Below, one piece after another: positions 21 through 41,319 of a stretch of 64,000 nt of DNA. Below the pieces are notes generated by a model. It saw nothing but the letters and a program-made list of their open reading frames with translations. It had not been told where the DNA came from and did no database searches. The stretch's first letter is position 1, and every line of letters starts with the position of its first letter. Source of the stretch: Oscillospiraceae bacterium (GTDB lineage Bacteria > Bacillota > Clostridia > UBA1212 > UBA1255); the NCBI GenBank assembly GCA_015069185.1, contig SVJB01000005.1:55958-119957 (forward strand), given 5' to 3'. The translations under genes were made by a program, and so were the position numbers.

Positions 21-239
21 ATGGAAACGAAACAACATATAGAATTTTCGACTCCGCCTACAGAACAAACGATATCACGATTTGACCATTGTCCGTGCTT
101 TGCAGCAAGGAGGAGTCTTCTTGCCGCAGAACCAATATGCTGGTTTTGTCGCTTTGCTAAGTTTGACTTATTTGCCGACCAACTGCCGGAGAGTGGTATT
201 TGCAAGTATCCCCTTGAACAAACGGAAATAAAAAGATAA
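21..239 (+). CDS. hypothetical small cysteine-rich protein (72 aa)
   Basis: ORF with an AGGGAG RBS about 7 nt before the ATG. Cys pattern is HCPC..CWFC..C. No family recognised. Confidence 0.4.
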   Translation: METKQHIEFSTPPTEQTISRFDHCPCFAARRSLLAAEPICWFCRFAKFDLFADQLPESGICKYPLEQTEIKR

Positions 240-299: not shown

Positions 300-1043
300 A
301 TGGAAAAAGAAAAGTCATCCACAACGCATAAAGTGCTTACAATTATAGGTATAGTGCTTTGTGTGATCCTTATACCGATTCTTATTATCAATGTAACCCT
401 TATTATCAAGAGTTACACTAATAAAGATGAAGTACCAGGTATTGGAGGCATCTGTCCGCTTATTGTACTTACAGATTCAATGGATCCCAAAATTAAAAGC
501 GGAGATTTGATATTTGTTCATACTATAGATGGACAGGATGTCAAAGAAAAAGATATTATCGCATTCTTTGATCCTGCCGGCAACGGTACTAGTGTCGTTA
601 CCCACCGAGTTATTGAGATAATTGACGACGGAGATGGCACTGTTTCTTTCCGCACACGAGGTGATAACAACAACACAGACGATAAAGTGTTAGTTCCTGA
701 AGAGAATCTTGTAGGCGAGTATAAAACTCGTATCCCACTGGCCGGCCATGTTGCTATGTTTATGCAAACAACACCGGGCCTCATAGTATGCGTCGTACTT
801 CCTATTATATTATTAGTTGCATACGATATCATTCGTCGCAAAATGTATGAAAAGACGAAGCAAGATGATACTCAGGCTCTGCTAGCGGAACTTGAACGTC
901 TCAAGGCTGAGAAAGCAGCTCAAGAGGCTATGGCTACTGTAGTTAGTGATGCACAGTCTGTAGAGGATACTGTTAGTGTTCCTAACACAGAGGAAACTGC
1001 CGAGGCACAACCTACGGCTGATGCACCTAATGGTGAAAATTAA
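300..1043 (+). CDS. sipW: signal peptidase I, SipW / ER-archaeal (S26B) type, copy 1
   Basis: N-terminal TM, catalytic Ser box LTDSMDP, GDLIFV, THRV (His) and an RGDNNNTDD box. A second TM is followed by a ~70-aa charged/acidic tail. Confidence 0.85.
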   Translation: MEKEKSSTTHKVLTIIGIVLCVILIPILIINVTLIIKSYTNKDEVPGIGGICPLIVLTDSMDPKIKSGDLIFVHTIDGQDVKEKDIIAFFDPAGNGTSVVTHRVIEIIDDGDGTVSFRTRGDNNNTDDKVLVPEENLVGEYKTRIPLAGHVAMFMQTTPGLIVCVVLPIILLVAYDIIRRKMYEKTKQDDTQALLAELERLKAEKAAQEAMATVVSDAQSVEDTVSVPNTEETAEAQPTADAPNGEN

Positions 1044-1063
1044 TTAAACTGTTTATTTCTCCT

Positions 1064-1093
1064 TTGGAAGCCACGTTCCGAGGATGATATAAA
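1064..1093 (+). promoter_or_regulatory. putative sigma-A promoter for the 216-aa subunit gene
   Basis: TTGGAA (1064-1069), 18-nt spacer, then TG (1085-1086) and TATAAA (1088-1093), an extended -10. Confidence 0.4.
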
Positions 1094-1213
1094 AAATGCC
1101 GCGGCATTCTCTGCGGATGGGTTCCCACGTATAGGTAGGATGCCCGGTAAATGTCTTTCTCGGAAGGGGAAGAAATAAAAATATTATTTTATTATGAAAG
1201 GGGTTTTTCGATT

Positions 1214-1864
1214 ATGAAGAAAAACAAAATGATGAGACTTGCTTCCGGTCTTTTGATCGCAGTTCTCCTTACTACATGCGCAATCGCCGGTACATTTGCG
1301 AAGTATACAACAAGTGCAACTGGTAGTGATTCAGCAAGAGTTGCTAAGTGGGGTGTAACAATTACTGCAAATGGCGAAACATTTAAGACCAATTATGATA
1401 ACACTGCTATTAGTGCTGTGGTTGAAGAAGATATTGTTGCTCCTGGTACATCAGGTGACTTAGTTGCTATGACAATTGGAGGAACTCCGGAAGTTAAGGT
1501 TGAAGTTAAATATGAGTCTGTATTGACATTAACAGGTTGGCAATTGGCTGATAGCACAGAGTATTGTCCTATCGTATTCACTGTTGGCAGCCAAACATAT
1601 GGTACAAATGATACTGATGCAACCAATAAGTCAGCAAATATTAACGAGCTGATTACTGCTGTTCAAGGTGCTATTAATGGTTATACAGCAGACTATGATG
1701 CGAATGTTAATCTTGCAACTTATGCTGAAACTCCTGTAGTTTCTTGGGCATGGGCTTATGCAGGAAATGATTCGGCTGATACATATTTAGGAAATCAAGC
1801 TTCTATTGGTAATGCTCCAATTATTTCACTAAGTATTACTACTACTATAACACAGATTGACTAA
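1214..1864 (+). CDS. TasA/camelysin-superfamily secreted protein with SipW-cognate type signal (candidate major fibre subunit, 216 aa)
   Basis: I prefer the internal ATG at 1214 (AAAGGGG RBS) over the track start at 1151. Signal reads MKKNK..LLTTCAIAGTFA|KYTTSATGSDSARVAKWGV. Also has an APGTSGD strand motif, W-x-W-x-Y..ND..D..LGN, and a terminal ITQID resembling the M73/TasA C-terminal f-x-a-t-Q strand. Confidence 0.7.
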   Translation: MKKNKMMRLASGLLIAVLLTTCAIAGTFAKYTTSATGSDSARVAKWGVTITANGETFKTNYDNTAISAVVEEDIVAPGTSGDLVAMTIGGTPEVKVEVKYESVLTLTGWQLADSTEYCPIVFTVGSQTYGTNDTDATNKSANINELITAVQGAINGYTADYDANVNLATYAETPVVSWAWAYAGNDSADTYLGNQASIGNAPIISLSITTTITQID

Positions 1865-1987
1865 TTTCTTTTCACAGAAATTAACAATTAAACGATGATT
1901 ATTCCGCCTGTGCCTACGTGGCCGGCATGGGTGGGTATTATCAAACAAGGACAATTAATTATTAAACTAAGGAAGGAGGGATTGTCC

Positions 1988-2950
1988 ATGAAAAAGAATA
2001 AAAATAGATACTGGATAATACCTCTGATAATTATTTTAGTAATTATTGTTTTTATCAGCGGTATTTTAGTTGGCTCCAGACTCAAACAGTTCACATCTGT
2101 TCAGATGAGTACTGATTTCTACATTAAGCCAAATGTAGCTGGGCAGATTAAAATCACATCTTCAAATAGCGCTGATAAAGGCAATAATAGTACTGCCGCA
2201 CCTGTAACGCCTAAGCCAGATGCTGCTGGAGCAACTGCTAAACCGCAGATTGGTGTAGATATTATGGGTGAGAATCCTGATGGGTCTCTAACAGAAGAGT
2301 TTATTCTCTTTAAGGCACAATATGAGAACGCAACAGGAGAAACTACTGTTAAGTCACTTACCGGAGATAATATAATCGCGCCTGGTACAGAAAATGAATA
2401 CAAAATGCGTATTATTAACACTGGTAACGTAGCTATCGATTACTACATTGATATAGGATCTATTTTCACATACAGTGAAGACTCATATGTATCTCCTCTG
2501 GAGGTTCGCTTGATTGATGCTAGTGGTAAATATCTTATCGGTAGTGAGTCATCTTGGGAAAGGGTAGAGGACTTTAAGGGTGTTACTGATATGGGCACTT
2601 TGGGTCGTAACTCATACTCCTATTACACTCTCCAGTGGAGATGGCCCTTTGAACGAGGCGAAGGCGAAGAAGTTGGGCTAAACGACATGTTAGATACTAT
2701 TATCGCCAATGCAACTGCAAATGTTAACATTGAGGTAGGACTTGAAGTAAACATATATGCTGCTCTTAATCCTGATCCGGATAGCCCAGGAGGAGTAGAG
2801 ATGCCGGAGACCGGCGACAGCAGTTTCTTCTTTATTTGGTTCCTGGTAGCCGGACTTGCATTGTTATTGCTCATCATACTGCCCTTTATCAAGAGGCGCT
2901 CTGACGACGAGGAGGAAGATAACGAAATGGCGGAGGGTACAGTAAGTTGA
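1988..2950 (+). CDS. TasA-like domain protein with N-terminal TM, Pro/Thr/Ala linker and C-terminal LPXTG-like (MPETG) sorting signal
   Basis: ATG at 1988 follows a GGAAGGAGGG RBS. Contains APGTENEY and LQWRWPFERGEGEEVGLNDMLD motifs like its neighbours. MPETG lies at 2801-2815, followed by a hydrophobic stretch, KRR and an acidic 15-aa tail. Confidence 0.6.
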   Translation: MKKNKNRYWIIPLIIILVIIVFISGILVGSRLKQFTSVQMSTDFYIKPNVAGQIKITSSNSADKGNNSTAAPVTPKPDAAGATAKPQIGVDIMGENPDGSLTEEFILFKAQYENATGETTVKSLTGDNIIAPGTENEYKMRIINTGNVAIDYYIDIGSIFTYSEDSYVSPLEVRLIDASGKYLIGSESSWERVEDFKGVTDMGTLGRNSYSYYTLQWRWPFERGEGEEVGLNDMLDTIIANATANVNIEVGLEVNIYAALNPDPDSPGGVEMPETGDSSFFFIWFLVAGLALLLLIILPFIKRRSDDEEEDNEMAEGTVS

Positions 2951-3525
2951 AGAAATTTAGTCTTAAGTCAATTAAAGTCTCTCGTGTCTTACAGATACTG
3001 GCTGTTTGCGTGTGTGGCGCCATACTTGGTGTTAATATTTATCTTGCAAATGCAAAGACTTTTACAAGAAACAGATTGCCTATGCCCTTTGGTATAGGAG
3101 CGGCTACTGTGTTGTCAGGCAGTATGGAGCCCGAGATGTCTAAGGGCGATTTGATATTTGTTAAGAAAACAGATGATATCGCAGTTGACGACATAGTTGT
3201 ATACGATAACGGCAGTGAGCTTATTGTTCACCGAGTTATTAAGATTGAAGATGATATGGTAACTACGCAGGGAGATGCAAATCCTTCTGCTGACGCACCT
3301 ATCAACATCAAATACATTAAGGGAGAGATAGTTTTTACCGTGCCGTTTGTTGGCAAGATAATAGACTTTATCAAAACTCCCGTTGGTACCATTATTATCC
3401 TTGCTCTTGCAATTGCACTGCTTGAGATACCGAGGTTAAGAGAAAAGAAGAAAGATACAGAAGAAATCGATAAGATAAAGGAAGAAATTCGTAAGCTTGA
3501 AGACGAGATAAAGAAAATTGTATGA
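2947..3525 (+). CDS. sipW: signal peptidase I, SipW / S26B type, copy 2
   Basis: TTG start overlaps the previous TGA stop (2947-2950). Has an N-terminal TM, LSGSMEP Ser box, GDLIFV, VHRV and QGDANPSAD, then a C-terminal TM and a K/E-rich coiled tail. Confidence 0.85.
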   Translation: MKKFSLKSIKVSRVLQILAVCVCGAILGVNIYLANAKTFTRNRLPMPFGIGAATVLSGSMEPEMSKGDLIFVKKTDDIAVDDIVVYDNGSELIVHRVIKIEDDMVTTQGDANPSADAPINIKYIKGEIVFTVPFVGKIIDFIKTPVGTIIILALAIALLEIPRLREKKKDTEEIDKIKEEIRKLEDEIKKIV

Positions 3526-3535
3526 GGAGAGCTAA

Positions 3536-4027
3536 ATGGCTGTCATAAAGAAATCAAAATTAAATATTCCTATGACATTGGGCCTTGCTCTACTTTGCCT
3601 TACTCTTGTTTCTATGCATTTTACAGGTGGACTATATGCTCGCTATACAACTAATTCTACAAGCGGAGACTCTGCTCGTGTTGCTGGATTTGACGTGGCT
3701 GACTTAATTAAGCAGGGTGAAAATGAAATAAAAGTGGGTGATCCTATTTACTTGGTGGATTTCAAGCCCGGAGATAGCATTACTTATGATATTAAGCTTA
3801 CTAACAGTAGTGAGGTAGCAGTACAGTATACCATCAGCTATACAACGACAGGTAATCTGCCTCTGGAATACTCGGAAATTTCAGGTACGATGCCGGCAAA
3901 AACTGACGGACAAGTTGAGTCGGATATAGAGTATATAATCAAGTGGGATAGCACTAAGAATGATATCTCACACATAGGTAAGATAGACGTTATACAAATT
4001 ATTGTAAAGATAGAACAGATAGATTAA
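3536..4027 (+). CDS. small TasA-like secreted protein with SipW-cognate type signal (163 aa, candidate minor subunit)
   Basis: GAGGAG RBS. Signal region reads ..HFTGGLYA|RYTTNSTSGDSARVAGFDV. Has an FKPGDSITY motif and a terminal IEQID, the same ending as the 216-aa protein. Confidence 0.65.
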   Translation: MAVIKKSKLNIPMTLGLALLCLTLVSMHFTGGLYARYTTNSTSGDSARVAGFDVADLIKQGENEIKVGDPIYLVDFKPGDSITYDIKLTNSSEVAVQYTISYTTTGNLPLEYSEISGTMPAKTDGQVESDIEYIIKWDSTKNDISHIGKIDVIQIIVKIEQID

Positions 4028-4042
4028 CATTAGGAGCAAACA

Positions 4043-4864
4043 ATGAACGTAAACAGTGAGAAAAAAATAAGAACATATATGTTTTTAATAATAATGTCGT
4101 TGTGTCTGCTTCTTGTTGCAGGTATTGTAGCCAAATATATTCATAACAGAGTAGTAGACGGCAAAATTAATGCGCCTTATTTTTATTTTACAAGTGATAA
4201 ATTAACGGAAACACAAACTACATATACTATGAATTCTGATATAACGTCAATTTCTTTTGATATTGCGAATTGCGCAGATGAGATCAGATATTCCGACATA
4301 GATATTAATTACACAATAACAGTTACAGGTGAAAATCTTGGCTCTGCCATACTGAATGATGGTAGTAATACGGGTACTCAAATAAGTGGCACACTTCAAG
4401 GTAGTATAGTATCTCGTAAGACAATTACACTTGAGAATATGGCGCCCGGTATTACATATACTGTGACAGCTGTAGGTTCAAATGGATTTTCACAGACAAT
4501 ATCTGCTAAGTTTAAGGTAATGGAAGCAGGTGGGGTGTATAAGAATACTGATAAATCCAACGGTGCATATGTGTTGCTTACTGTTTGGGCTATTAAAAAT
4601 GATGGAGTATTGGAAATTAGTTTCCCTGCAGGATTGATTCCGGATAATACAGACCCTGTTATGGCAAGTATATATAATTTTGCAGATGATACGTATAAGG
4701 CAGGAAGTTTTTCTGATAGTATTTCATTTGCTGAGGCAGATAAATCAGCATCTCATGTGTACAGATTCTTTAAGACCGCAGATTATACAGGTGCTACCGA
4801 GTTTACCGTAAAGCTAAAAAAGGATGGAAATGAGATAGAAGCTGTTGAGACGGGGCTAAGCTAA
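4043..4864 (+). CDS. hypothetical exported protein with related N-terminal module (273 aa)
   Basis: TAGGAG RBS. TM/signal reads LLLVAGIVA|KYIHNRVVDGKINAPYFYF, matching the [AG]-G-x-x-A-[KR]-Y pattern of the neighbours. The rest looks beta-rich, and no family is recognised. Confidence 0.5.
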   Translation: MNVNSEKKIRTYMFLIIMSLCLLLVAGIVAKYIHNRVVDGKINAPYFYFTSDKLTETQTTYTMNSDITSISFDIANCADEIRYSDIDINYTITVTGENLGSAILNDGSNTGTQISGTLQGSIVSRKTITLENMAPGITYTVTAVGSNGFSQTISAKFKVMEAGGVYKNTDKSNGAYVLLTVWAIKNDGVLEISFPAGLIPDNTDPVMASIYNFADDTYKAGSFSDSISFAEADKSASHVYRFFKTADYTGATEFTVKLKKDGNEIEAVETGLS

Positions 4865-4877
4865 GAGAGGATAATAT

Positions 4878-7800
4878 ATGAAGAAGAATAAGAGATATTT
4901 ATTATATACATTAGTTTTGGCTGGGTTGATATTCGTCTTGGCGCTAATCAACATGGTATCAGCCGAGGAAGTAAACTATATATATTTTGACTTGGCAGCA
5001 GGTAATGTTGATATTAACAATTCTACATATACAGGGTATATATATGATAGAGAAAACGGTAATAGTAAGGTAACAGTAACAGGAACGCACCATGAATCAA
5101 ACCGCTATTATATCTATCAGTCGTGCTCATATAACACCTCATTTGATGAACACGGGGTGCCACAGTATGAGGCAGTAACATATGATAATAAATCTTGGGG
5201 GGACTATATAACAAATAATACTGATATTACAGGTATTATAGATGCGTGGGATAGTGCTGTAAGCGGAAAGAGAACCCCTACTAAGAATCTGATTAATATA
5301 AAAGTATCCGGTAAGCGTTGTGATCTGACACTGGATAATATTTGGGCTACGTATCAAAAACAAGGAGCTTCTGGGGAAACTCCTCGTAGCGGACTTAATG
5401 TATATAAAGGCAGTACTTTGGGAACTCATGTTCTTGTCCGATTAAAAGGTGATAATCGTTTTGGAAGTATACACTATTACACGGGTAGTTTATCAACGAA
5501 AGATGGTAGTACTCTTGCGTTTACCAGTGATGCCGGTAACGGAAGTAGTTTGGGCACATTGACAGTAATTGGTAGTCAGTCTTTGACAAATTCTAATGGC
5601 AACTACACAGCAGTGCCGGGTAGTAGCAATAACGTAATGACAAACCATTGGGATTCAGTTATTGGTGGCAGTGACAGTACGGATCATGTAAGAGGACTAC
5701 ATTTCTATGGTGGTACGATATATGCAGGATCTACTCCAAGAGAAAACTGTACGACTATCGGCGGTGGCGGTAATGGTATGGGACAGGTGACAATAACAGG
5801 TGGACGTGTTACCGCCGTGGCTCATACTACAGGAACTGCAATTGGTGGTGGTATTGCCCATACATCTTACGGTGGAGACTCTGATGTACTAATCTCAGGC
5901 GGTAAGGTATATGCTTATAATTTTGGACAGCCGGCATACGAAGTTGTTTCTAACTTTGGTACTTCTGATACGGCGGTTATTGCTGCTGCAAAGCATATTG
6001 CAGGTACGGCAATCGGTGGAGGCAGCTCTATTCTTAGCAGTGGTAACAAAAATGCGGCAAAAGTTACAATTACAGGTGGAGAAGTATACGCGCAAAGTCT
6101 TGGTGGTTGTGCTATCGGTGGAGGAAACAGTGTTAATACTACTGCAGGTAGTGCTAATGTTGTTATATCAGGTGGTGTAGTACATGCTCAAAGTACATCT
6201 GAAACTAACTACCAAGGTATAGAAGGATATGACGTAAAGTCATCAGTTGCTATAGGTGGTGGCCGTGGTGGTATCAACGGTAATGGTGGTAATGCTACTG
6301 TTACTATTTCTAACAACGCAGTAGTATATGCCGGTTCAATCGGTGGTGGCGGCACAATAAGCACAAATTCTACAAATAATATTGGTTTTGCAGAGGTAAC
6401 AGTATCCGGCGGTAGCGTCCAGGGCCAGATTATTATGGCAGGCGGTGCTAGTAAAGGATGTACCTTCAAAATGACAGGTGGTACTATTGATAATAAGGAT
6501 CATTTATATACGTTTGTTCAGGATAAGGGTGGCGCCGTATATATTGATGATAACAACGGTGTTGCTACTATCAGCGGTGGTACGATTAAGAATTGTGACG
6601 CGCTGCAAGGCGGCGCTATGTATATGACAGCCGGTAAATTTAATATGTCAGGAGATGCTAAGATTACAGATTGTACTGCAACCCAAGAGGGCGGTGCTGT
6701 ATACCTTGGCGGTGGAACATTTACAATGACCGGTGGATTGTTAAATAACAATGTCTCTAACACAGAAGGCGGTGCCGTATTTGTTACAGGTGGAGAAGTT
6801 ACAATCGGTCAAGCAAACTGTACAGCTGATTCACATCCTGTTATTACAAACAACTATGCACAAAATGGTGGCGCTTTCTATATAGAAGAAAGAACACCTG
6901 TTATGTACTGCGGTACAATTCAAAGCAACCATGCTGATGTAAACGGTGGCGGTATCTGTGTTGAGTCTGGTGGATTCGACCTGTACGATGGTAATATTAT
7001 CGGAAATACTGCAAGTATTGGTGGTGGCGTATACGTTCATGGTGGTAACGTTAATATGACAGATGGATCTGTTTCGGGAAATACTGCAAGTATTGGTGGC
7101 GGTATTGCTGTTAACGGTGGTAACGTGACTATTAGAGATGGAAACGTTGATAATAACAGAGCTACAGCCGGCGCAGGCGGAGGAATATACGCTGCTTCTG
7201 AAGGAAATGACGTATCAATCTTAATCACAAGTGGCTCTGTAAGTGGTAATACTGCTTTTGCAGATGGAGGCGCGGTTGCCGTTCTTGGAGACAAGAATGA
7301 TACTGAAGACATCACTGTTACAATTGGTTTAAATGAGAATCACAGACTGGTAGATTGTCAGCACAATTCTGAAAATGCGGATTACAAGGATTGCCCTGTG
7401 ATTGAGAATAACCGTTCCGGAGCAAGTGGTGGTGCTTGCTATATAACGGGTAGTATAAATGCAAGGCTGAATTTGTTCTGTTTGACTGAAAATAATAACG
7501 CATGTGAATCTGATGGCGGACTTAGTAATTTCCTTATGGTAGAGGGTGGTAAAGTTATATTAACTACATCCAAAAAAATAGAGGAGGATAATCAAGACGA
7601 TGATCATGGAAATGCTATTATACACAACACGATTCATATTGTAGGCGGACAGATGGATATTTATGGTTCGATGCTCAACCCTAAGACCGAAGGAGATATA
7701 ACAGTTGAGGTGCAGGAAGTAAATAATGATGATGCCGCAAAGAATGACTATTATTGGGATCATCGATTTAATATAGATGAAAACAATAAGATATATAAGG

Positions 7801-10451
7801 TACATTATTTTGAGAACTTCAAGGCAGATGGTGGCACGGCTATCGGTAGATATACAGCGATATTTATACCTCAAAATACAAACCATGCTATCCGAAGTGG
7901 TATGTATTACAGGCCCGGATATGTAATTCTTGGTTGGAATACAGATCCTGATGGAAATGGTATTGAATATAAAATTAATGATGTATATTACTTTGACCAG
8001 AATGAAGATGTACTAGTAAATCAGGTTAAAGGTTTTGATACAGAAAATGACGTGTTGGTTTTATATGCTATATGGTCACAAAATAGCTACAGCGTAATTT
8101 TTGATGCAAATGTTCCCAACGGCATGCATTATGATGGTTCCATGGCAGAACAAGGATTCTTGTATAATGTACCGCAAGCACTCAGCAAGAATATGTTTTC
8201 ACGTAAAGGCTATAATTTCTTAGGCTGGAGTCATGATAAGGATGCTACTGTTGCTACTTATCAAGATGAATATTTGATCGAGGAATCCCTCACAACAGTG
8301 GATGGTGCTAAGATAACATTATATGCAGTGTGGGAAGAGTGTACTCACCTAGAGCATAGTATAACGTATACAGCACAAGATAATATTATTACTAAGACGT
8401 GCTCTTGTAATGGATTTACAGAGACTGCTACTGTTACGGCTACTGATACAGTCTATAACGGCACAGTTCAGAAAACCGGCACTGTTCAATATTCCGGTGC
8501 TAACTGGGGGATTGCTATTACATACATGGAAGACGACACTGTTGTCGATCCTATCAATGCAGGTACATATAAGGCTTGTATAACAATAGGTGGGGTTACA
8601 GCTTATACTACTTACTTTATCGATAAAGCAAGCCAACCTGCTCCTGGACAACCTACATATAATGTTACTACGCAAGAAGATATAAACTCTATTGTTGTTT
8701 TACTTCCTGGAAATATTGATACAACTAAAGATGTGGAATACCAGATTGCGTATATCGACAACAATGGTTTTCTTGTGGATCAGGCTTGGCAAGCAAGTAA
8801 TATTTTTGAGTTAAACATATCTCATACTACTTATTTCGTTTATATCAGATATGCAGAGAGTCAGAACTATTATCCTTCAGACCGTACTATTGCTGACGCG
8901 GGCTATTATTTTGAAAGTAACAAGGTTGCTATTTTCATTCGGAATGGTGATGGAGTTATAGCATATCCTACACAAATTAAAGAAAATGATGAGGTAAAAT
9001 ATTATGCTGTTGTTGTAGTACCTAATTCAGGCTATTATATTCCTGAGAATATTGGTCTTACTATTGAAGCTACATATGAAAAAGAGAATATTACTTATGC
9101 TAGAATTGATAATGATGGTAAGTTTACGTATGCCGTGTCTGGAATACACGTTCCTCCGGATGGAAGCGGTATTGCTACAAACGTAATTACTATCACCACA
9201 GGTAATGCTCGATTGATTCCTTCAATCTCTGCTAAGATAGATCCAGATGAAGTATTTGGCAGTGTTGTTGGTACACCTACTGTAATCAGCCGCGATTCAG
9301 CATTTACTGTGAATTACCGTATAGAAAACTACAATATTTACGATTACAGTAATCCGAAGATTGTTTTTAGTGCTGCATTACCCAAAGATACTACAATAAT
9401 ATTTGTTGATAAGATAAATAACACATATTGGTATAAGAATATAAGTGCTTCGACAAGCACAATTAATCTGGTTGGTTTTATTAAAATGGGAACAGCTTCT
9501 ACATATTACCAGATTACAGGAGCTACACAGGAATATCAATTTATAATTGATTTTTCTGATGTGGATGCCGGTGAAGTCATTCCTAATTTTCTTTCTGTAC
9601 AACTTCAGGTAACCACTGCTACTTCAAACGGTGCGCCGGATATTTTCACAGATGAATCAAATACTAAGGTGAGTACAGATATTGCGACTGTTACATTCGA
9701 TATTATGGATAAAACAGGTGATGTTTCTAATGACGTAGAACGTCTGACAAATACTGTTAACGTAAAGTATGCAGTGTCTAATGTTGCAAATATTGTTTCG
9801 TCTAAATGGAACGGACGTAAAGCTGCTCTCGTGCTTACTCCTACAAGTTCAATTCCTTTGGATAGTACAATTGAATTTACAGAAGGAAATACTACTGTTG
9901 TGCTTAATATTGTAAACGGATACTTCATCATTCCGTTACAATATACAAATTCTGATGTATATATTACACTGAAGTCACAGTTGTTCCCGGAAAACGGCGG
10001 CACATTCACGTTCAAATGTGAGTTGTATTCATCTGAGTCTATGGCAGGTAAAGCTCCTGAAAACGGTGAACTGATGGATACGATTGATACACTTACTTTT
10101 GTAAAGGTTAAGGACACTACTCCTTCTGCCGGATTTAGGGAAATTGACACAACTAAACAGGTTCTAAAGGCTACTGAATTAATAGAGATTGGTGTTATGA
10201 CCAAGAATACGCCCGTAGACAGATACACTGTTACAGTAACAATCATGTATAAGAATCCAAATGGCGGATACAGTAGTACAGCACAATCCGCGACTGTAGC
10301 GCCACCGCAAAATAGTGATTCTATTAACACAAATATTAGATTCGCCCTGACAACATACAGTGCAGGTAGTTACTGCTTGCTCCTTGAAGTCAAAGAGCCA
10401 ACAGGCTATTCAGTTGTCGCTACACCGTATTATTTTATCATCGAAGAATAA
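4878..10451 (+). CDS. giant secreted surface protein (1857 aa): parallel beta-helix, InlB-B/Flg_new repeats, MBG-like domain and a long Ig-like tail
   Basis: Sec-type signal ending VSA|EE. IGGG...[IV][ST]GG-x-[VI]-x-A repeats and PMP-like GGAVY/GGAMY/GGAFY/GGGVY/GGGIY/GGACY repeats lie at about 5660-7565. Two G[YW]-x-[FIL]-LGW..D...Y....LYA[IV]W repeats lie at about 7840-8340. A VYNGT..INAGTYK MBG-like module lies at about 8440-8630. No C-terminal anchor was seen. Confidence 0.8.
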   Translation: MKKNKRYLLYTLVLAGLIFVLALINMVSAEEVNYIYFDLAAGNVDINNSTYTGYIYDRENGNSKVTVTGTHHESNRYYIYQSCSYNTSFDEHGVPQYEAVTYDNKSWGDYITNNTDITGIIDAWDSAVSGKRTPTKNLINIKVSGKRCDLTLDNIWATYQKQGASGETPRSGLNVYKGSTLGTHVLVRLKGDNRFGSIHYYTGSLSTKDGSTLAFTSDAGNGSSLGTLTVIGSQSLTNSNGNYTAVPGSSNNVMTNHWDSVIGGSDSTDHVRGLHFYGGTIYAGSTPRENCTTIGGGGNGMGQVTITGGRVTAVAHTTGTAIGGGIAHTSYGGDSDVLISGGKVYAYNFGQPAYEVVSNFGTSDTAVIAAAKHIAGTAIGGGSSILSSGNKNAAKVTITGGEVYAQSLGGCAIGGGNSVNTTAGSANVVISGGVVHAQSTSETNYQGIEGYDVKSSVAIGGGRGGINGNGGNATVTISNNAVVYAGSIGGGGTISTNSTNNIGFAEVTVSGGSVQGQIIMAGGASKGCTFKMTGGTIDNKDHLYTFVQDKGGAVYIDDNNGVATISGGTIKNCDALQGGAMYMTAGKFNMSGDAKITDCTATQEGGAVYLGGGTFTMTGGLLNNNVSNTEGGAVFVTGGEVTIGQANCTADSHPVITNNYAQNGGAFYIEERTPVMYCGTIQSNHADVNGGGICVESGGFDLYDGNIIGNTASIGGGVYVHGGNVNMTDGSVSGNTASIGGGIAVNGGNVTIRDGNVDNNRATAGAGGGIYAASEGNDVSILITSGSVSGNTAFADGGAVAVLGDKNDTEDITVTIGLNENHRLVDCQHNSENADYKDCPVIENNRSGASGGACYITGSINARLNLFCLTENNNACESDGGLSNFLMVEGGKVILTTSKKIEEDNQDDDHGNAIIHNTIHIVGGQMDIYGSMLNPKTEGDITVEVQEVNNDDAAKNDYYWDHRFNIDENNKIYKVHYFENFKADGGTAIGRYTAIFIPQNTNHAIRSGMYYRPGYVILGWNTDPDGNGIEYKINDVYYFDQNEDVLVNQVKGFDTENDVLVLYAIWSQNSYSVIFDANVPNGMHYDGSMAEQGFLYNVPQALSKNMFSRKGYNFLGWSHDKDATVATYQDEYLIEESLTTVDGAKITLYAVWEECTHLEHSITYTAQDNIITKTCSCNGFTETATVTATDTVYNGTVQKTGTVQYSGANWGIAITYMEDDTVVDPINAGTYKACITIGGVTAYTTYFIDKASQPAPGQPTYNVTTQEDINSIVVLLPGNIDTTKDVEYQIAYIDNNGFLVDQAWQASNIFELNISHTTYFVYIRYAESQNYYPSDRTIADAGYYFESNKVAIFIRNGDGVIAYPTQIKENDEVKYYAVVVVPNSGYYIPENIGLTIEATYEKENITYARIDNDGKFTYAVSGIHVPPDGSGIATNVITITTGNARLIPSISAKIDPDEVFGSVVGTPTVISRDSAFTVNYRIENYNIYDYSNPKIVFSAALPKDTTIIFVDKINNTYWYKNISASTSTINLVGFIKMGTASTYYQITGATQEYQFIIDFSDVDAGEVIPNFLSVQLQVTTATSNGAPDIFTDESNTKVSTDIATVTFDIMDKTGDVSNDVERLTNTVNVKYAVSNVANIVSSKWNGRKAALVLTPTSSIPLDSTIEFTEGNTTVVLNIVNGYFIIPLQYTNSDVYITLKSQLFPENGGTFTFKCELYSSESMAGKAPENGELMDTIDTLTFVKVKDTTPSAGFREIDTTKQVLKATELIEIGVMTKNTPVDRYTVTVTIMYKNPNGGYSSTAQSATVAPPQNSDSINTNIRFALTTYSAGSYCLLLEVKEPTGYSVVATPYYFIIEE
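7002..7151 (+). repeat. tandem 75-bp (25-aa) duplication inside the beta-helix region
   Basis: The units begin at 7002 and 7077 and share an identical 23-nt start, ggaaatactgcaagtattggtgg. They encode GNTASIGGGVYVHGGNVNMTDGSVS and GNTASIGGGIAVNGGNVTIRDGNVD. Confidence 0.8.
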
Positions 10452-10527
10452 TCATTTTATATTGCAACCTCACCATGAAAATGTTACACTGAGTCTAATA
10501 TAGACTACAGTGTTTGAGGTGTTATGT

Positions 10528-12777
10528 ATGATAAGTAAAACAAGAGACGGTTCGTCTATCATTGGCAAGAAAAATATTTATTTTTGTTCGCATCCGGAGG
10601 ATAGAGAATACTATCTAAAAGAGATAACAGAAGACATTTTTTACGTAATAAACTGCGCTGTATGGCATGACGACGGAACTGAAATATCTGAATCCAATAG
10701 ACTGTTTTTCTGTGAAAATATGGATTTGGTTGTAATTCCTGTTACAGACAAGTTTCTTTATGATGATAATTACGCCAAAGATACTGAAGTAGAGATATTC
10801 AAGAAAGCACGAATTCCGATTCTTCCCATAATTACCGATGAATCACAGTTTACAGCAGCAAACGCGCTTTTCGGTAATCGACAGGTACTGGAACATACCG
10901 TTACCGACAAGACAAAGCTTGGATATTACAATAAATTAGAGCGATTCTTACGAGGATTTCTGATGGGAGAGACACTTTTCAAAGAGTATAGCAAAGTGTT
11001 TACAGATACGCTGTTTATAAGTTATCGCAAGAAAGACAGAAGTATAATACTTGATTTGCTAGCTAAAATTCACTCCAATCCTAATCTTCGTACTGTTGGC
11101 GTATGGTATGATGAATTCCTGACGCCGACAGAAGTTTTTACAAAAGAAATAGAAAATTCTATTGTTGGCAGTTCGTATGTTGTTATGTTAATCACACCAA
11201 ATACACTAGAGCGAGGCAACTACATAATTACTGATGAATACCCGTATGCAAGTGAGAACAAGAAGAAAATCATAGGCGTGCTCAGTGGTGTCAGCCGAGA
11301 ACAAGCGACACAAATGTTTCCGAAAATAAAGGAATTTGTAGACATAGAAGATAAGAACCTGCCTGTGAAAATAGAAAGCTATTTCCAATTAAAGCCGGTT
11401 GATATTGATGACCTTCATAAACTCTACTGGCTTGGCCTTTGCTATATGAGCGGCATTAATGTGGAGAGAAATAGTGAATATGCGATAGAATATCTGACTA
11501 AGTCATCTGATAAAGGGAATATGGATGCGGCTGCTATCCTGAGCAGTATATACGCAGATGGTATTGGAGTTGAGCAGGATCCGGAAAAGGAAATAATGTG
11601 GGCGCAGAAATATGTGCAGAATGCAAAACAGTCCGGAAATATTAAGAAAATAACGGAGAGTATGCTCATACTGTCTGACAGCTATGACAGACATGACCTT
11701 ATAGAAGAATCCAACCGGACTCATACAGAACTGATGGATTATTTGACAAGACAAAATGATGCAAAGGAAGTGCTCAGTGATGTGGCACAGGCAGTACTGT
11801 ACTTTGGCAACAATTTACTTAGAAGAGGCTTGTATCAGCAGGCAACAGATGCTTTTGTTAATGTAAAGAATATGTATAGCCAACTTGCAGTTGATAATAC
11901 GCAGGAGTACGGAGAAGACAGTTATTTGCTGACTCAGCTAAAATATAACCTGGGCACAAGCTTGTTTAAGACAGGTAATTACATGGAAGCTAAGAAATAT
12001 TTTGAGGATGTTGTTCACGACTTGGGCCAGTACACGAGACTTGATCCTGAAGGGTATAACGATATTTACATCAAGGCTCTTGACAATCTGGCGCTGGTGT
12101 ACAGAAATATAGGGTATATGAATCATGATAATCAAAAGCTGTGTGAAGCAGAGCAACTTATGCGTCGTAGTGTGGAGATTGCAGACGATATGCTGCTGAC
12201 TCGCAGGCGTATATATGAGCCGCTACTTGCATCAAGCTGCCAGATTCTGGCAACCTTTTATATGAGTGTCTCAATGTACGATGAAAGCAGCGTATACTTC
12301 GCAAAAGCCATAGACTCTTACAACAATATACTCAAGTTCAAAGATTCAGATTGCAGTATTGAACTGGCACAGACCTGTAATAATTATGCAGTACTTCTGA
12401 GACAGCTTGGAGAGAATGATAAGGCACTTCAATATGCTGTACATGGAGCCAAAGAAATTAAAGACCATTGGCTCAAAGCTCCTACGGTATATAATCTTAT
12501 GTATGCAAAAGCACTGACAAGTGTTGCCATTATTTTCACTGCCATGGATGATTATGAAAATGCAGCGAAACATTTTATGAGTGCTATCGACCTATATAAA
12601 GTTAGTCAAAGGAACTCTATTGAAGCATACGAGGGTACTGCCGAATGTTATATGGAATTTGGCGTTATGTTTATGAAGGACGGACAACAGGAGAATGCAG
12701 TAAAATGTCTTGATTATGCTAAAAATATTACCAAATACTGGCAAAGAATGGCTATAACGATTATAGCCTGCAATTAA
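10528..12777 (+). CDS. TIR-like / TIR / Sel1-repeat / TPR-like multidomain cytoplasmic protein
   Basis: I prefer the ATG at 10528 (GAGGTG RBS 6 nt upstream) over the GTG at 10510. TIR_2-like block reads LFISYRKKDR..VGVWYDEFL..EIENSIVGSSYVVMLITPNTL..ITDEYPYA (about 11005-11320). A degenerate TIR-like N-domain reads NIYFCSHPED..AVWHDD..MDLVVIPVT..RIPILPII. Two Sel1 repeats lie at about 11410-11620 (YWLGLCYMSGINVERN.., AAAILSSIYADGIGVEQD..). The C-terminal half is helical-repeat. Confidence 0.65.
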   Translation: MISKTRDGSSIIGKKNIYFCSHPEDREYYLKEITEDIFYVINCAVWHDDGTEISESNRLFFCENMDLVVIPVTDKFLYDDNYAKDTEVEIFKKARIPILPIITDESQFTAANALFGNRQVLEHTVTDKTKLGYYNKLERFLRGFLMGETLFKEYSKVFTDTLFISYRKKDRSIILDLLAKIHSNPNLRTVGVWYDEFLTPTEVFTKEIENSIVGSSYVVMLITPNTLERGNYIITDEYPYASENKKKIIGVLSGVSREQATQMFPKIKEFVDIEDKNLPVKIESYFQLKPVDIDDLHKLYWLGLCYMSGINVERNSEYAIEYLTKSSDKGNMDAAAILSSIYADGIGVEQDPEKEIMWAQKYVQNAKQSGNIKKITESMLILSDSYDRHDLIEESNRTHTELMDYLTRQNDAKEVLSDVAQAVLYFGNNLLRRGLYQQATDAFVNVKNMYSQLAVDNTQEYGEDSYLLTQLKYNLGTSLFKTGNYMEAKKYFEDVVHDLGQYTRLDPEGYNDIYIKALDNLALVYRNIGYMNHDNQKLCEAEQLMRRSVEIADDMLLTRRRIYEPLLASSCQILATFYMSVSMYDESSVYFAKAIDSYNNILKFKDSDCSIELAQTCNNYAVLLRQLGENDKALQYAVHGAKEIKDHWLKAPTVYNLMYAKALTSVAIIFTAMDDYENAAKHFMSAIDLYKVSQRNSIEAYEGTAECYMEFGVMFMKDGQQENAVKCLDYAKNITKYWQRMAITIIACN

Positions 12778-17286: not shown

Positions 17287-17357
17287 GCGGGTATAGTTCA
17301 GTGGCAGAACATCAGCCTTCCAAGCTGATTATGAGGGTTCGATTCCCTTTACCCGCT
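17287..17357 (+). tRNA. tRNA-Gly (anticodon UCC)
   Basis: Hand-folded cloverleaf. Acceptor GCGGGTA/TACCCGC, D arm GTTC-AGTGGCA-GAAC, anticodon arm TCAGC-CTTCCAA-GCTGA, T arm GAGGG-TTCGATT-CCCTT, discriminator T. No encoded CCA, and a T-run follows. Confidence 0.9.
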
Positions 17358-17435: not shown

Positions 17436-17996
17436 TTGTTACTCTATGTTGCAGGAACTTTGTTCGCTTTTGATGATGATGAACAAAGACAGCAAGAAAA
17501 ATTTGAGAAAATATACTTACAGTATGGAAGACTCATGTATAGCAAGGCATATGAGATATTAAAAGATCATGCCCTTTCCGAAGATGCTGTAAGCGAAGCT
17601 TTTATACGCATTTTTAAGAATTTATATAAGTTAAGTGATACAGTTCCTTGTCCTGAGACAGCATCGTTTGTAGTGGTTGTTGTACGGAATGTTTCTTTGA
17701 CGATGATTGAGAAGCAAAGATATTCACTGCAAGTATCTATTGAAGATGAAGAGTTTAATATACCTGATGGTATTGATATGGAAGAGGACATACTGTCACA
17801 GATATCATCTCAAGAAATTATGAATCTTGTTGAGAGCCTTGGAGAAGATATACGTCAGGTTTTCTTACTGTATTACGGATACGATATGAGTCTGGCTCAG
17901 ATAGCTCAGACATTGGATATTACAGCAAACCTTGCCGGTGTACGATTACATAGAGCCAGGAAGAAGCTGGCAAAGATGATTGGTAAAGAGTTTTAA
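17436..17996 (+). CDS. sigma-70 family (ECF-like) RNA polymerase sigma factor
   Basis: TTG start 6 nt after AGGAGGGG. Region 2 reads SEDAVSEAFIRIFKN. Region 4 HTH reads MSLAQIAQTLDITANLAGVRLHRARKKL. Confidence 0.75.
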   Translation: MLLYVAGTLFAFDDDEQRQQEKFEKIYLQYGRLMYSKAYEILKDHALSEDAVSEAFIRIFKNLYKLSDTVPCPETASFVVVVVRNVSLTMIEKQRYSLQVSIEDEEFNIPDGIDMEEDILSQISSQEIMNLVESLGEDIRQVFLLYYGYDMSLAQIAQTLDITANLAGVRLHRARKKLAKMIGKEF

Positions 17997-18022: not shown

Positions 18023-18664
18023 ATGAAGCAAGAGAAGAATGATAAGCTCTTTAAGCAAATAGCAAGTGAATATATCAAGAATACAGGAATAGTACTTGAT
18101 GAAGAGGCGACGCAACTTAATCATAATATGTCAGCGATGCCATCAAGACCGACAAAGCCATCTCGCAGGCGTTGGATACCGTGGGTGTCGGCTATAGGCA
18201 CAGCAGCTGTAATCTTATTTATGGTTGTAAATATAATGGTGTTACAGTTTGCTTTCAACAGAACGAATAAAAATGATTCTTCTATGCCTGATAATAATCA
18301 TCCTGTACAGACTGCAGATCCCGAGTGGCAAGGTCCGGAAATGACATTAGTAAATAACAATCGTTTTTCAGTAGAAGAAAGATTGATAGATAACGGACAA
18401 TATATTTACAAAGTAAACGACACAACAAATGATGATGTAGTTGTTACGTTCATATCTCATGACGACTTTGATCCGTCAACAATGAGATACACATATAAGA
18501 ATGAAAAGAAAATTTACTATAAAAACGAGGTAGGATACAAGATTATAGCATTGTCATTAGAAGAGGATTGGATTATCACTCTTTCTTGTGCTCATGATAT
18601 AGAAACACTAAATATAATCTTTGATTTGATAAAAATAAATTCAGAATATTTAGGTGACCTGTAA
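18023..18664 (+). CDS. putative anti-sigma factor / single-pass membrane protein
   Basis: Lies directly downstream of the sigma gene. It has one TM (WIPWVSAIGTAAVILFMVVNIMVL) and no other recognised motif. Confidence 0.4.
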   Translation: MKQEKNDKLFKQIASEYIKNTGIVLDEEATQLNHNMSAMPSRPTKPSRRRWIPWVSAIGTAAVILFMVVNIMVLQFAFNRTNKNDSSMPDNNHPVQTADPEWQGPEMTLVNNNRFSVEERLIDNGQYIYKVNDTTNDDVVVTFISHDDFDPSTMRYTYKNEKKIYYKNEVGYKIIALSLEEDWIITLSCAHDIETLNIIFDLIKINSEYLGDL

Positions 18665-18703
18665 TATTTCTCATCTTTGCAAAGTTATATAGGTGAGAAA
18701 CAC

Positions 18704-20230
18704 ATGAAAGGACTGAAATTAATGAAAAAAATAATCAGTGTTTTATTGGCATTATGTATTTGTTTGGGTTTGGCGTCTTGCGGAGCTCCGATGTATGATA
18801 ATATGAGTGAGGGATATCCATCATTTTCATATCAAGGTGAAAATAATGAAACATATAATGAAATAATTCAGAATCAGTTTATCTCCACAAGCGAAGAAGC
18901 TACTAAAGCTTTTTCCCTCAAAGTAGATACTGCTGCTTATACAAATATATCACGATATATAGAAAATGGCAGCCTGCCTCCGGTAGATGCGGTAAGGACA
19001 GAGGAACTCATTAATTATTTTGAGTATGATATGCCGATTGATGAAAATAATGATCATCCTTTTTCTGTTATTACTCAAGTAGCCCGTTCACCCTTTGCTG
19101 CAGGCAAACACATGGCATATATAAGAGTCAAGACACCGGATATCGCAACAGAAGATTTACCGGCAAGCAATCTTACTTTCCTTATTGATACATCAGGGTC
19201 TATGTACTCTTACGATAAATTACCCCTTGTTATGAAGGCTTTCTCACTTCTTGTTGAGAATCTGTCTGAAAAAGATATTGTCAGCATCGTTACTTATGCA
19301 GGTTCCTCAGAAGTTATGTTAGATAGCGTCCGCGGTGATCGAAAAGAAATTATTATGGATGCTATAAACAGTCTTACTGCCGGAGGTTCTACTGCGGGTA
19401 GCAAAGGTATTGAGACCGCATACAATCTTGCTGAAAAGAATTATATAGAGGGTGGCAATAATAGAGTTATTCTGGCAACAGATGGAGATTTTAATGTTGG
19501 TATATCTAGTACTAGTGCACTTGAAGCTTTTATATCAGAAAAGCGGGATGAGGGTATTTACTTAAGTTGTCTGGGTTTTGGTACTGGTAATTTACGTGAT
19601 GATATGATGGAAACTCTCTCTGAACATGGCAATGGTAACTATTCGTATATTGATTCTCTTTATACTGCGCAGAAGGTACTTGTAGATGAGATGGGTGCCA
19701 ACCTTTTCACAGTGGCAAAAGATGTTAAGGCAGAGTTACAGTTCAATACTGCTACTGTATCCGAATTCAGACTAGTAGGATATGAAAACAGAATTATGAG
19801 TTCTGATGAGTTTGATGATAGCAACAAAGATGCAGGAGAGATTGGTGCAGGTACAGACGTTATTGTATTGGTTGAGCTGATATTATCGGAAGGATATACA
19901 GAAGGTACGCTGTTTGATGTTTGCATCAGATATAAAGATCCGGAAACCGAGGAGCAGGGTCAGGCTATATATCAGGCGGCTGCTATTACAGAAACACCGG
20001 ATACAGACTATAACTTTGCCTGTGCTGTAGCGGCGTTTAGTGAGTTGCTCAGAGGTTCAGAGTTTATTGATAATACTACTGCAGAGCAGATAGCACAATG
20101 TGCCAACGCCAATAAAGGCGCCGATATTAAAGGCTACAGGGCAAAATTTATTGCACTTGTGGCAGAATATATTAAATTAGACTTGCATACAGAATCTGAA
20201 ATTGGTAAAATAGAACAGATGTGCATTTAG
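18704..20230 (+). CDS. von Willebrand factor A domain lipoprotein (YfbK-like)
   Basis: ATG at 18704 follows AGGTGAG. Lipobox LGLASCG. MIDAS motif DTSGSM, plus TAGGSTAG and ATDGDFNVG motifs. Confidence 0.75.
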   Translation: MKGLKLMKKIISVLLALCICLGLASCGAPMYDNMSEGYPSFSYQGENNETYNEIIQNQFISTSEEATKAFSLKVDTAAYTNISRYIENGSLPPVDAVRTEELINYFEYDMPIDENNDHPFSVITQVARSPFAAGKHMAYIRVKTPDIATEDLPASNLTFLIDTSGSMYSYDKLPLVMKAFSLLVENLSEKDIVSIVTYAGSSEVMLDSVRGDRKEIIMDAINSLTAGGSTAGSKGIETAYNLAEKNYIEGGNNRVILATDGDFNVGISSTSALEAFISEKRDEGIYLSCLGFGTGNLRDDMMETLSEHGNGNYSYIDSLYTAQKVLVDEMGANLFTVAKDVKAELQFNTATVSEFRLVGYENRIMSSDEFDDSNKDAGEIGAGTDVIVLVELILSEGYTEGTLFDVCIRYKDPETEEQGQAIYQAAAITETPDTDYNFACAVAAFSELLRGSEFIDNTTAEQIAQCANANKGADIKGYRAKFIALVAEYIKLDLHTESEIGKIEQMCI

Positions 20231-41297: not shown

Positions 41298-41319
41298 GCA
41301 TACCAAACTTAATATTTAA

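Follow-up and report, generated by a model that had tools for sequence, protein, structure and literature searches.

Organization of the locus

A 64,000-nucleotide stretch of contig SVJB01000005.1 from an Oscillospiraceae bacterium (assembly GCA_015069185.1, positions 55,958 to 119,957 of the forward strand), referred to here as the window, carries near its start seven consecutive genes, g1 to g7, which an earlier note made from the DNA sequence had described as a SipW/TasA-like locus and a candidate multi-subunit fibre or adhesin system. They encode two signal peptidases (g1 and g4), four small proteins (g2, g3, g5 and g6) and one giant secreted protein (g7). In the open reading frame (ORF) list of the 64-kb window, all seven genes lie on the + strand with intergenic gaps of 170, 123, -4, 10, 15 and 13 nt in order from g1 to g7, which reproduced the co-directional and tightly spaced arrangement that had been reported (Table 1). 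Two JGI metagenome contigs carry an identical locus, and the genes called on them by an independent gene caller were the same. The TTG start of g4 overlaps the stop codon of g3 (TTGA), and a GGAGG sequence is located 9 nt upstream of the TTG; this overlap and the GGAGG suggest that translation of g4 is coupled to that of g3.

The earlier note had also assigned g2 a promoter-like element of its own. Such an element is present, with TTGGAA and TATAAA separated by an 18-nt spacer, approximately 115 nt before the g2 ATG, but it is weak: it fails the rule of the promoter scan and was not listed by it. Across the region the number of promoter-like matches (43) was close to the shuffled expectation (39.6), and promoter and terminator counts were uninformative. 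A search of positions 1-2100 of the window against Rfam gave no match, with no riboswitch or other known RNA in the leaders of g1 or g2. The g2 leader RNA folds with a z-score of -2.6, and a GC-rich hairpin with the same z-score and a 12-bp core stem lies between g2 and g3. This hairpin was not called as an intrinsic terminator by the terminator scan; it is possibly an attenuator or stabiliser that would favour expression of g2, the presumed shaft subunit.

A second stable hairpin was observed directly 3' of g7, where it overlaps the called GTG start of the following gene, g8. The operon may end at this hairpin, and translation of g8 possibly starts further downstream than called.

Table 1. 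Features of the cassette and of the remainder of the window, with positions in the window.
Feature	Position	Strand	Description
g1 (SipWa)	300-1043	+	247 aa; SipW/archaeal-type signal peptidase I
g2	1214-1864	+	216 aa from the MKKNKMM start; presumed major (shaft) subunit
g3	1988-2950	+	320 aa; presumed cell-wall or membrane anchor subunit
g4 (SipWb)	2947-3525	+	192 aa, TTG start; second SipW-type signal peptidase
g5	3536-4027	+	163 aa; minimal g2 paralog; presumed minor or adaptor subunit
g6	4043-4864	+	273 aa, secreted; presumed second minor or adaptor subunit, specific to the giant class of g7
g7	4878-10451	+	1857 aa, secreted giant protein; presumed adhesin
Weak promoter-like element upstream of g2	1064-1093	+	TTGGAA 1064-1069, 18-nt spacer, TATAAA 1088-1093
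GC-rich hairpin between g2 and g3	1894-1942	+	core 12-bp stem 1903-1935; -31.6 kcal/mol, z=-2.6
Hairpin 3' of g7	10467-10520	+	-19.1 kcal/mol, z=-3.3
72-aa Cys-rich ORF	21-239	+	upstream of g1
755-aa TIR protein	10510-12777	+	58 nt 3' of g7
tRNA	17287-17357	+	
ECF-type sigma factor	17436-17996	+	
213-aa protein	18023-18664	+	no family match; possible anti-sigma factor
vWA/YfbK-type protein	18677-20230	+	
T-box leader	41316-41568	+	RF00230, 99.6 bits (threshold 93); upstream of ORF 41675-43348

Conservation and variation of the cassette

A scan of one genome per species yielded at least 373 confirmed loci. Synteny was determined from 80 fetched loci, in which ORFs were called and labelled with hidden Markov models (HMMs) seeded from the window proteins. 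Almost all of these 80 loci came from metagenome-assembled genomes, recovered from the guts of humans, goats, buffalo, yak, deer and horses and labelled as Acutalibacteraceae, Oscillospiraceae, Ruminococcaceae, Lachnospiraceae, Eubacteriales or Clostridia; no cultured carrier was found among the listed entries. A SipW gene was located directly upstream of g2 in 67 of the 68 related loci with room upstream, and an ORF of at least 900 aa on the + strand followed the core in 41/45 loci. The order 2-3-sipW-5, with either a g5 homolog or a g2-like protein at position 5, was kept in 51 of 58 loci and across dozens of species of gut and rumen Clostridia, which answers the question of whether the genes are conserved as a block in relatives. 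The locus is thus a real, coherent and strongly conserved cassette, beyond what chance would produce.

At least two types of cassette were distinguished by the genes that accompany the giant. In type B, to which the window belongs, g6 precedes the giant gene; g6 was found in 16/80 loci. The commoner type A is without g6 and carries, 3' of the giant, a gene of approximately 190 aa matching the BsaA-family model TIGR04090 (E=1e-11, 43-45 bits, below the cutoff of 60). Many type A giants share a C-terminal domain (…GxYTVTQ..WSWRY…WLNGNS…), as in locus L078 at 3553-8540. The g6 gene and the BsaA-like terminal gene never occurred together (0/9 vs 28/41). Additionally, the type A terminal gene was seen to start with an …LAYMF… junction, and in some type A loci position 5 and the giant are separated by an extra gene of approximately 200-250 aa whose product has an AKY junction.

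Locus L066 (5053-13471) contains two tandem modules, each with a position-5 gene, a g6-like gene and a giant, and in locus L043 one SipW gene is followed by four tandem g2 paralogs. These arrangements suggest modular exchange or variation of fibre parts. The nearest fetched relative, L073, is 33-60% identical across the seven proteins, whereas the 72-aa ORF upstream of g1, which is unrelated to the cassette, is 76% identical in the same locus; this difference fits surface proteins that are evolving fast.

The two SipW-type signal peptidases

The assignment of g1 and g4 to the SipW type (S26B) was confirmed with the NCBIfam model TIGR02228 for archaeal/SipW-type signal peptidase I, which both proteins pass (103 bits for g1 and 80.5 bits for g4; cutoff 51.85); g4 also matches Peptidase_S24 with 34.7 bits. 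Both score below the cutoff of 190 for NF046067, the equivalog model of Bacillus SipW (104.8 bits for g1 and 67.6 bits for g4), and they are therefore SipW-type proteins and not SipW orthologs. The motifs DSMDP, THRV and RGDNN in g1, and GSMEP, VHRV and QGDAN in g4, are the Ser, His and Asp boxes, which we take to be catalytic (Ser-His type) from what is known of the family. Each peptidase has a hydrophobic segment at its N-terminal and its C-terminal end, and g1 additionally has a long charged C-terminal tail.

Amongst the related loci, all 73 peptidases encoded upstream of g2 were closer to g1, and 63 of the 64 encoded downstream of g2 were of the g4 type. These are separate orthologous groups with fixed positions, and therefore the duplication is old and both copies have been retained. 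The two peptidases are probably non-redundant, with one possible division in which SipWa would process g2 and SipWb the downstream subunits.

Families, motifs and models of the small secreted proteins

The g2 protein had 4969 homologs in a 90%-clustered protein collection. Amongst the 120 of these that were listed, none had a Pfam domain, and the few with a name were called 'hypothetical protein'. An exhaustive profile search for g2 against 50%-identity representatives returned 5761 of them at E<=1e-3, 3583 at 1e-10 and 1351 at 1e-30. For g6, 71 homologs were found, which, where named, were again only 'hypothetical protein'. In the window, none of the four small proteins was assigned to a curated family.

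Comparison of the family profiles with hhalign related the small proteins to one another, at 99.4% probability over 197 columns for g2 and g3, 99.2-99.4% over 168 columns for g2 and g5, and 97.4% over 100 columns for g3 and g5. An HMM built from each of these three families also found the other two window proteins. The alignment of g5 with g6 reached 95.7% over 81 columns, limited to the signal peptide and the N-terminal part, which bears out the related N-terminus that had been noticed in the 273-aa protein. By these profile comparisons g2, g3 and g5 are paralogs, and g6 is a more distant relative that shares only the N-terminal part.

The families have several motifs in common, namely APGT or KPGD with an x-N-x-(G/S) strand after it, and PEV or SEVAV. 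The g5 protein also carries KPGD...N.SEVAV, and a WxWxF…D..DT.LG motif was found in g2 and g3 only. The signal peptides end in similar junctions, GTFA↓KY in g2, GLYA↓RY in g5 and GIVA↓KY in g6, where the arrow marks the predicted cleavage site. The A[KR]Y junction was present in 70/71 g2 homologs, 33/56 position-5 proteins and 17/18 g6 homologs. It is followed by the strand DSARVAKWGV in g2 and DSARVAGF in g5, and the corresponding DxARV pattern was found in 67 of the 71 g2 homologs and 38 of the 56 position-5 proteins. At the other end, the C-termini are TQID in g2, EQID in g5 and GLS in g6, and a terminal Q-x-D-COOH was shared by 70/71 g2 homologs and 32/56 position-5 proteins.

The conserved N-terminal segment stands out in both the alignments and the structure models. 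Of the 33 invariant columns of the g2 family, 12 lie within residues 27-48. The AlphaFold 2 (AF2) model of g2 had a mean predicted local distance difference test score (pLDDT) of 78.8, with a confident core at approximately residues 80-216 made up of a beta-sandwich and three helices, and a pLDDT below 50 at residues 27-41 and 54-61. The model of mature g5 (pLDDT 84.2) is an eight-strand all-beta sandwich in which residues 1-13 scored below 50. In both proteins the least confidently modelled segment is thus the most conserved one, directly after the predicted cleavage site. A segment that is conserved and yet modelled as unstructured would fit a donor strand that packs on another subunit.

The g2 family was also seen to have one invariant Cys (C118, in 'YCP') and a near-invariant TQID-COOH (Q214-D216); g5 keeps the QxD and is without the Cys. 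Candidates for a covalent lock between subunits were considered and rejected. For an isopeptide lock of the BsaA type (N-E-K) there is an invariant Glu (E93 in g2, E58 in mature g5) but no invariant core Lys, and the conserved residue of the putative donor strand in g2 and g5 is Asp, not Asn as in the BsaA triad. A Thr-Gln ester or Cys-Gln thioester lock was set aside as well, as there is no invariant His and the Cys is absent from g5 although the QxD persists.

The position-3 protein as presumed anchor

The C-terminus of g3 consists of MPETGDSS, a hydrophobic stretch of approximately 24 residues, KRR and then an unusual acidic tail of 17 aa, so that the ending MPETG-TM-KRR of the earlier description can be read directly in the sequence. 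These are the pentapeptide, hydrophobic segment and basic residues of an LPXTG-type sorting signal. An xPxTG tail, usually with D as the next residue and then a transmembrane helix and basic residues, was found in approximately 47 of 70 position-3 homologs. The g3 protein matched the LPXTG family NF053819 at E=4e-5 with 24 bits, below the cutoff of 47.

The N-terminal part of this family is different from that of its paralogs. Only 1/53 g3-family proteins has the A[KR]Y junction and 0/53 the DxARV strand; in their place, g3 has a long low-complexity linker before the core. Many g3 homologs also contain, after the transmembrane helix, a short G-x-I-x-L/I-S/T stretch that recalls the SGTLDLS of TasA.

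In seven loci (L021, L023, L025, L044, L049, L070 and L073, e.g., L073:10838-12013) the position-3 protein is without xPxTG and has instead a transmembrane helix, a Pro-rich linker and a domain of approximately 90 aa that passes the Pfam model Ribosomal_L27A/uL15 with 40-51 bits against a cutoff of 21.5. The position of this uL15-like domain after the transmembrane helix indicates that it is presumably cytoplasmic. The xPxTG and the uL15 forms both keep a C-terminal membrane element, which supports position 3 as the anchor. We therefore presume g3 to be the anchor subunit, putatively processed by a sortase. A sortase ORF with the TLxTC motif was found nearby in only 3 of the 80 related loci, and the window contains none, so any sortase acting on g3 would have to be encoded elsewhere.

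The giant protein g7

In the giant protein, a signal peptide is combined with a region of G-rich repeats and with Listeria-Bacteroides repeats, and the C-terminal region is rich in beta structure. The Listeria-Bacteroides repeats score above the cutoffs of the Pfam model Flg_new (PF09479; InlB-B type; 30.3 bits, cutoff 27) and of TIGR02543 (24.4 bits, cutoff 20.95), and the repeat matches lie within residues ~1071-1153. One tandem unit of 75 nt was found in the gene. The description of g7 as a beta-helix/InlB-B-repeat/MBG-like protein thus held for the InlB-B repeats; the Pfam and NCBIfam scans found no MBG domain, and the beta-helix was suggested by the G-rich repeats only. A direct search of g7 against PDB sequences gave nothing significant. 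Giants from other loci are highly divergent, with a BLASTP match to g7 in only 4 of 42. The N-terminus of g7 was tried as a candidate donor strand and rejected, given that the matching motif is internal in g7 homologs.

Proposed assembly and alternative explanations

On balance, we lean towards reading the locus as a SipW-dependent, multi-subunit surface fibre assembled by donor strands and distantly related to TasA and BsaA. In this proposal, the small subunits would be exported through Sec and then cut by SipWa or SipWb at A↓[KR]Y, which would expose the strand (K/R)YTT..DSARVA(K)(W/F)GV. The exposed strand would insert into the beta-sandwich of a neighbouring subunit, i.e., by donor-strand exchange as in TasA and BsaA, and g2 would polymerise into the shaft. 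The g3 protein, with the same core but no strand, would tie the fibre to the envelope by means of a sortase whose gene lies elsewhere; a plain transmembrane anchor would take the place of the sorting signal in some relatives. The g5 and g6 proteins would be minor or adaptor subunits that travel with the giant class and connect or present g7, the variable adhesin. As the locus is without a pilus-type (class C) sortase, the sortase would anchor the fibre and not polymerise it.

A number of results weigh against this proposal, most of them concerning the relationship to TasA. None of g2, g3, g5 and g6 reached a TasA, camelysin or BsaA model in the Pfam and NCBIfam searches. The closest approach amongst the small window proteins was that of g5 to Pfam Peptidase_M73 (PF12389), with E=0.097 and 12.9 bits against a cutoff of 22.5; g2, g3 and g6 gave no match to Peptidase_M73 or TIGR04090. 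For TIGR04088, the model of the SipW-cognate signal proposed as a check of the small proteins, no match was reported at the E-value limits used. Profiles of g2 and of the type A terminal gene gave nothing significant against PDB sequences, as was also the case in direct sequence searches with g2 and g5, and with g5 profiles TasA appeared at E~0.85 over a PGD…N.GS motif or was absent. Alignment of g5 profiles to TasA with hhalign reached probabilities of only 4% and 11%. The Foldseek library (PDB) includes the TasA entries 8aur and 5of1, as an exact match of the TasA sequence showed; the AF2 models of g2 and g5 gave no match in it at E<=0.001, and no TasA-superfamily entry or AbpA was amongst the best 50 matches of either model. 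The best Foldseek matches were the chaperone-usher pilins SafA, Caf1, FocH and PsaA for g2 (E>=0.1), and complement MG domains and other Ig-like sandwiches for g5 (E>=0.008), whose fold is a generic Ig-like sandwich. The link between g5 and the BsaA-like terminal gene is also weak, with an hhalign probability of 96% for a heterogeneous locus-derived profile and 29% for window-type g5 homologs. The 'TasA-like' label of the earlier note therefore did not hold at the level of family models, and the Foldseek comparisons gave no support to the TasA fold that it presumed.

The anchoring and the tip of the proposed fibre have counterarguments of their own. The match of g3 to Pfam Gram_pos_anchor is only at E=0.1, MPETG is a non-canonical pentapeptide, and the 64-kb window contains no ORF with the TLxTC sortase motif. 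The g7 protein has an ordinary signal peptide and none of the shared junction, strand or anchor motifs by which it could be joined to a fibre. Its putative role as a distal adhesin attached to the fibre is deduced from gene position only.

Other observations are compatible with a very distant relationship, amongst them the beta-sandwich form of both AF2 models and the BsaA-family match of the terminal gene of type A loci. The junctions GTFA↓KYTT (g2), GLYA↓RYTT (g5) and GIVA↓KYI (g6) resemble the GT[FWY]A↓[AFY]F[ST]D of the TIGR04088 type. Two g5 homologs, P0123 (39% identity) and P0127 (34%), pass Peptidase_M73 with 28.5 and 29.2 bits against 22.5, with matches restricted to profile positions 5-80 of 196, the N-terminal third. 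In single-sequence scans of 56 position-5 homologs at E<=1, M73 and TIGR04090 each matched 2/56, as sporadic weak matches. Although of low probability, the hhalign alignment between the TasA precursor and g5 is co-linear: it places the hydrophobic regions on each other, the known TasA cleavage site TWA↓AF on LYA↓RY, and PGD…N.GS on KPGD…N.SEVAV. Based on these sequence comparisons, the small proteins probably work like members of the TasA/BsaA superfamily, as very distant relatives whose membership is not established. The division of labour into shaft, adaptor, anchored base and adhesin that had been proposed for the locus is partly supported, by the conserved cassette, the paralogs, the retained anchor tail, the fixed positions of the two peptidases and the conserved N-terminal segment, and is left without support where it called for a TasA fold and a distal g7.

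The same components could build something other than a tipped fibre. In a bsa-like biofilm matrix, g2, perhaps with g5 and g6, would form loose fibres, some of them tethered by g3, and g7 would be secreted independently under shared regulation. The sipW-bsaA-bsaB-bsaC operon of C. perfringens, where BsaC, a large secreted vWA protein of 70 kDa, is likewise encoded together with TasA-like proteins, lends weight to such a matrix, as do the extreme divergence of the giants between loci and the absence from g7 of the junction, strand and anchor of the small proteins. However, the set of minor subunits changes with the class of giant, g6 being exclusive to one and the BsaA-like terminal gene going with another, and the 5-6-giant module was duplicated as a unit in L066; the co-variation and the duplication suggest a physical partnership between minor subunits and giant. 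The conserved anchor subunit also points to a cell-bound structure, and we regard a matrix of this kind as unlikely. It is more improbable still that these are Ig-like surface or secreted proteins that do not polymerise, with a signal peptide that requires SipW and an N-terminal motif used for recognition or processing. The generic beta-sandwich of g5 would agree with this explanation, as would the PDB searches, in which no filament protein was matched significantly in structure or in sequence, and recognition by the peptidase could account for the conservation of a motif that adjoins the predicted cleavage site. Conservation nevertheless reaches approximately 20 residues beyond the junction (DSARVAKWGV), which is more than signal-peptidase recognition normally needs, and close homologs of g5 belong to Pfam M73. 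Additionally, the strand-less anchor paralog, the four tandem g2 genes of L043 and the hairpin after g2 are a better fit to a stoichiometric polymer.

A short pseudopilus or assembly scaffold that exports the giant, or presents it through the thick wall, could explain why a giant gene is almost always found downstream, and the secretion of BsaC in C. perfringens depends on pilus-like machinery. However, no ATPase, platform protein or prepilin peptidase is encoded in the locus, and processing of the SipW type together with an anchor subunit is characteristic of fibres that assemble passively by themselves, which makes a scaffold very improbable. The least probable of the explanations considered, and one to which we give hardly any weight, is that spore-forming gut Clostridia use the locus to build an appendage or a surface fibre of the spore. 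Appendages of several types are made by Firmicutes, and the first description of TasA was of a protein associated with spores; PDB entry 5of1 still names TasA 'Spore coat-associated protein N', and the hosts here are Clostridia. On the other side, no sporulation genes or recognisable sporulation context adjoin the locus in the window, a sortase-type anchor implies a vegetative cell wall, and no Ena-type similarity was found among the Foldseek matches of the g2 and g5 models.

Beyond the preferred reading as a donor-strand fibre, the cassette could represent a distinct and very widespread class of Gram-positive surface fibre of gut and rumen Clostridia. Its subunits would be matured by two specialised SipW paralogs and would polymerise by donation of the (K/R)YTT..DSARVA strand, with neither sortase nor chaperone; the anchor would be a paralog of the shaft with either a sorting signal or a transmembrane helix and a cytoplasmic uL15-like domain, and interchangeable giant adhesins would be displayed through cassette-specific adaptors. 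Such a class would constitute a modular adhesin-presentation system of commensals that has been missed by current annotation. We consider this broader proposal tentative, and somewhat short of probable.

Neighbouring features of the window

The 72-aa ORF upstream of g1 is Cys-rich (…CPC…CWFC…C…); L073 has it at the corresponding position, and the other loci are without it. Its product could be a small zinc-binding protein or a regulator, or the ORF could be a mere neighbour. On the other side of the cassette, the 755-aa protein matches TIR_2 with 32.7 bits and contains Sel1/TPR repeats. It was found in 0/80 related loci and therefore lies outside the cassette. A weak PADLOC match to SAVED_TIR (E=0.0013) was also recorded for this protein, which may act in defence or signalling. 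The remaining annotated features of the window are listed in Table 1.

Significance

The family described here is large, with approximately 5,800 representatives of g2 at 50% identity, specific to gut Clostridia, and unannotated in the listed matches. If the proposed reading is true, a fast-evolving fibre dedicated to the display of giant adhesins would be present in many gut commensals that are poorly cultured, with a bearing on colonisation, on attachment to mucus or fibre particles and on aggregation. The donor-strand principle of TasA and BsaA would then extend to a bacterial architecture that is heteropolymeric, wall-anchored and tipped. The alignments of g2, g3, g5 and g6 could each serve to build a new family model, four in all.

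Comparison with known systems

The earlier note knew of no described example of such a system; published precedents exist in the operons of Kivimaki et al., the AbpX preprint and the Tafi pili. Kivimaki et al. described LPXTG-bearing bsaB with an adjacent srtB in most C. perfringens strains, and operons in which several paralogs occur with LPXTG proteins and are accompanied by a signal peptidase and a sortase; BsaA itself assembles by donor-strand exchange with an isopeptide lock (10.1101/2024.11.04.621531). The AbpX preprint set out a cross-domain TasA superfamily, including bacterial loci with minor subunits and SLH or LPXTG anchors, and reported that AlphaFold 3 (AF3) predicts an LPXTG anchor protein to join donor-strand oligomers in a Clostridium (10.64898/2026.01.04.697558). 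In Tafi pili, major and minor pilins occur together with a tip protein that varies, an anchor in the membrane and a dedicated signal peptidase (PMC12337348). In the literature searched we did not find the g2-type sequence family, two SipW paralogs at fixed positions, the anchor variant with a uL15 domain, or a near-universal giant protein with cassette-specific adaptors.

One of the closest known systems is the sipW-bsaA-bsaB-bsaC operon of C. perfringens, in which a dedicated SipW is likewise encoded together with several paralogs of the TasA-like kind and one large protein that is secreted. Unlike that operon, the present cassette has two peptidases at fixed positions, no adjacent sortase and no N-E-K triad, and the subunits of the window fall below the BsaA and M73 models. 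The giants also differ, being variable repeat proteins of 1400-2300 aa here and a 70-kDa vWA protein, BsaC, in C. perfringens.

In the tapA-sipW-tasA operon of Bacillus subtilis, a SipW-type peptidase is also encoded next to its substrates, and TasA shares with the small proteins described here (where it is predicted) a cleavage on the C-terminal side of a small residue, beyond which lie an aromatic residue and then the donated strand. TasA subunits join by donor-strand exchange; TapA initiates the fibres and anchors them, so that an accessory protein ties the fibres to the wall (PMC9674648, PMC10151520), a role that we infer here for g3. Unlike in B. subtilis, this anchor would be a paralog of the shaft with a sorting-signal tail and not a TapA-like protein. 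There are also more types of subunit, a second peptidase and a giant protein, and no significant sequence or Foldseek similarity was detected.

AbpX-type loci, as in Clostridium amylolyticum, resemble the cassette in that a fibril subunit is encoded together with minor subunits like AbpX, anchors of the LPXTG or SLH type and a dedicated signal peptidase I. Compared by description, the AbpX peptidase is a 10-transmembrane form with an accessory subunit, whereas the two peptidases here are ordinary SipW paralogs. The archaeal Tafi pili, with TafA/TafE pilins, the TafC tip, the TafF anchor, the TafD peptidase and TafG, show a similar division of labour, and they assemble by strand donation (PMC11821415, PMC12337348). 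They differ in being archaeal, often Tat-dependent, and anchored in the membrane and not by a sortase, and their likeness to the locus is also one of description.

More distant pilus systems share parts of the same logic. SpaA-type pili have a comparable arrangement of shaft, base, minor and tip subunits and are anchored to the cell wall by a sorting signal; unlike them, the cassette is without a class C sortase and shows neither a pilin motif nor an E-box, and its sorting signal is carried by g3 only. Chaperone-usher pili resemble it in overall logic and in donor-strand exchange, which is the proposed mode of assembly here, and differ in that the cassette has no chaperone or usher and its hosts are Gram-positive. 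Altogether, given an overall architecture with such published precedents, the cassette is most likely a variant of the TasA/BsaA fibre rather than a new principle.

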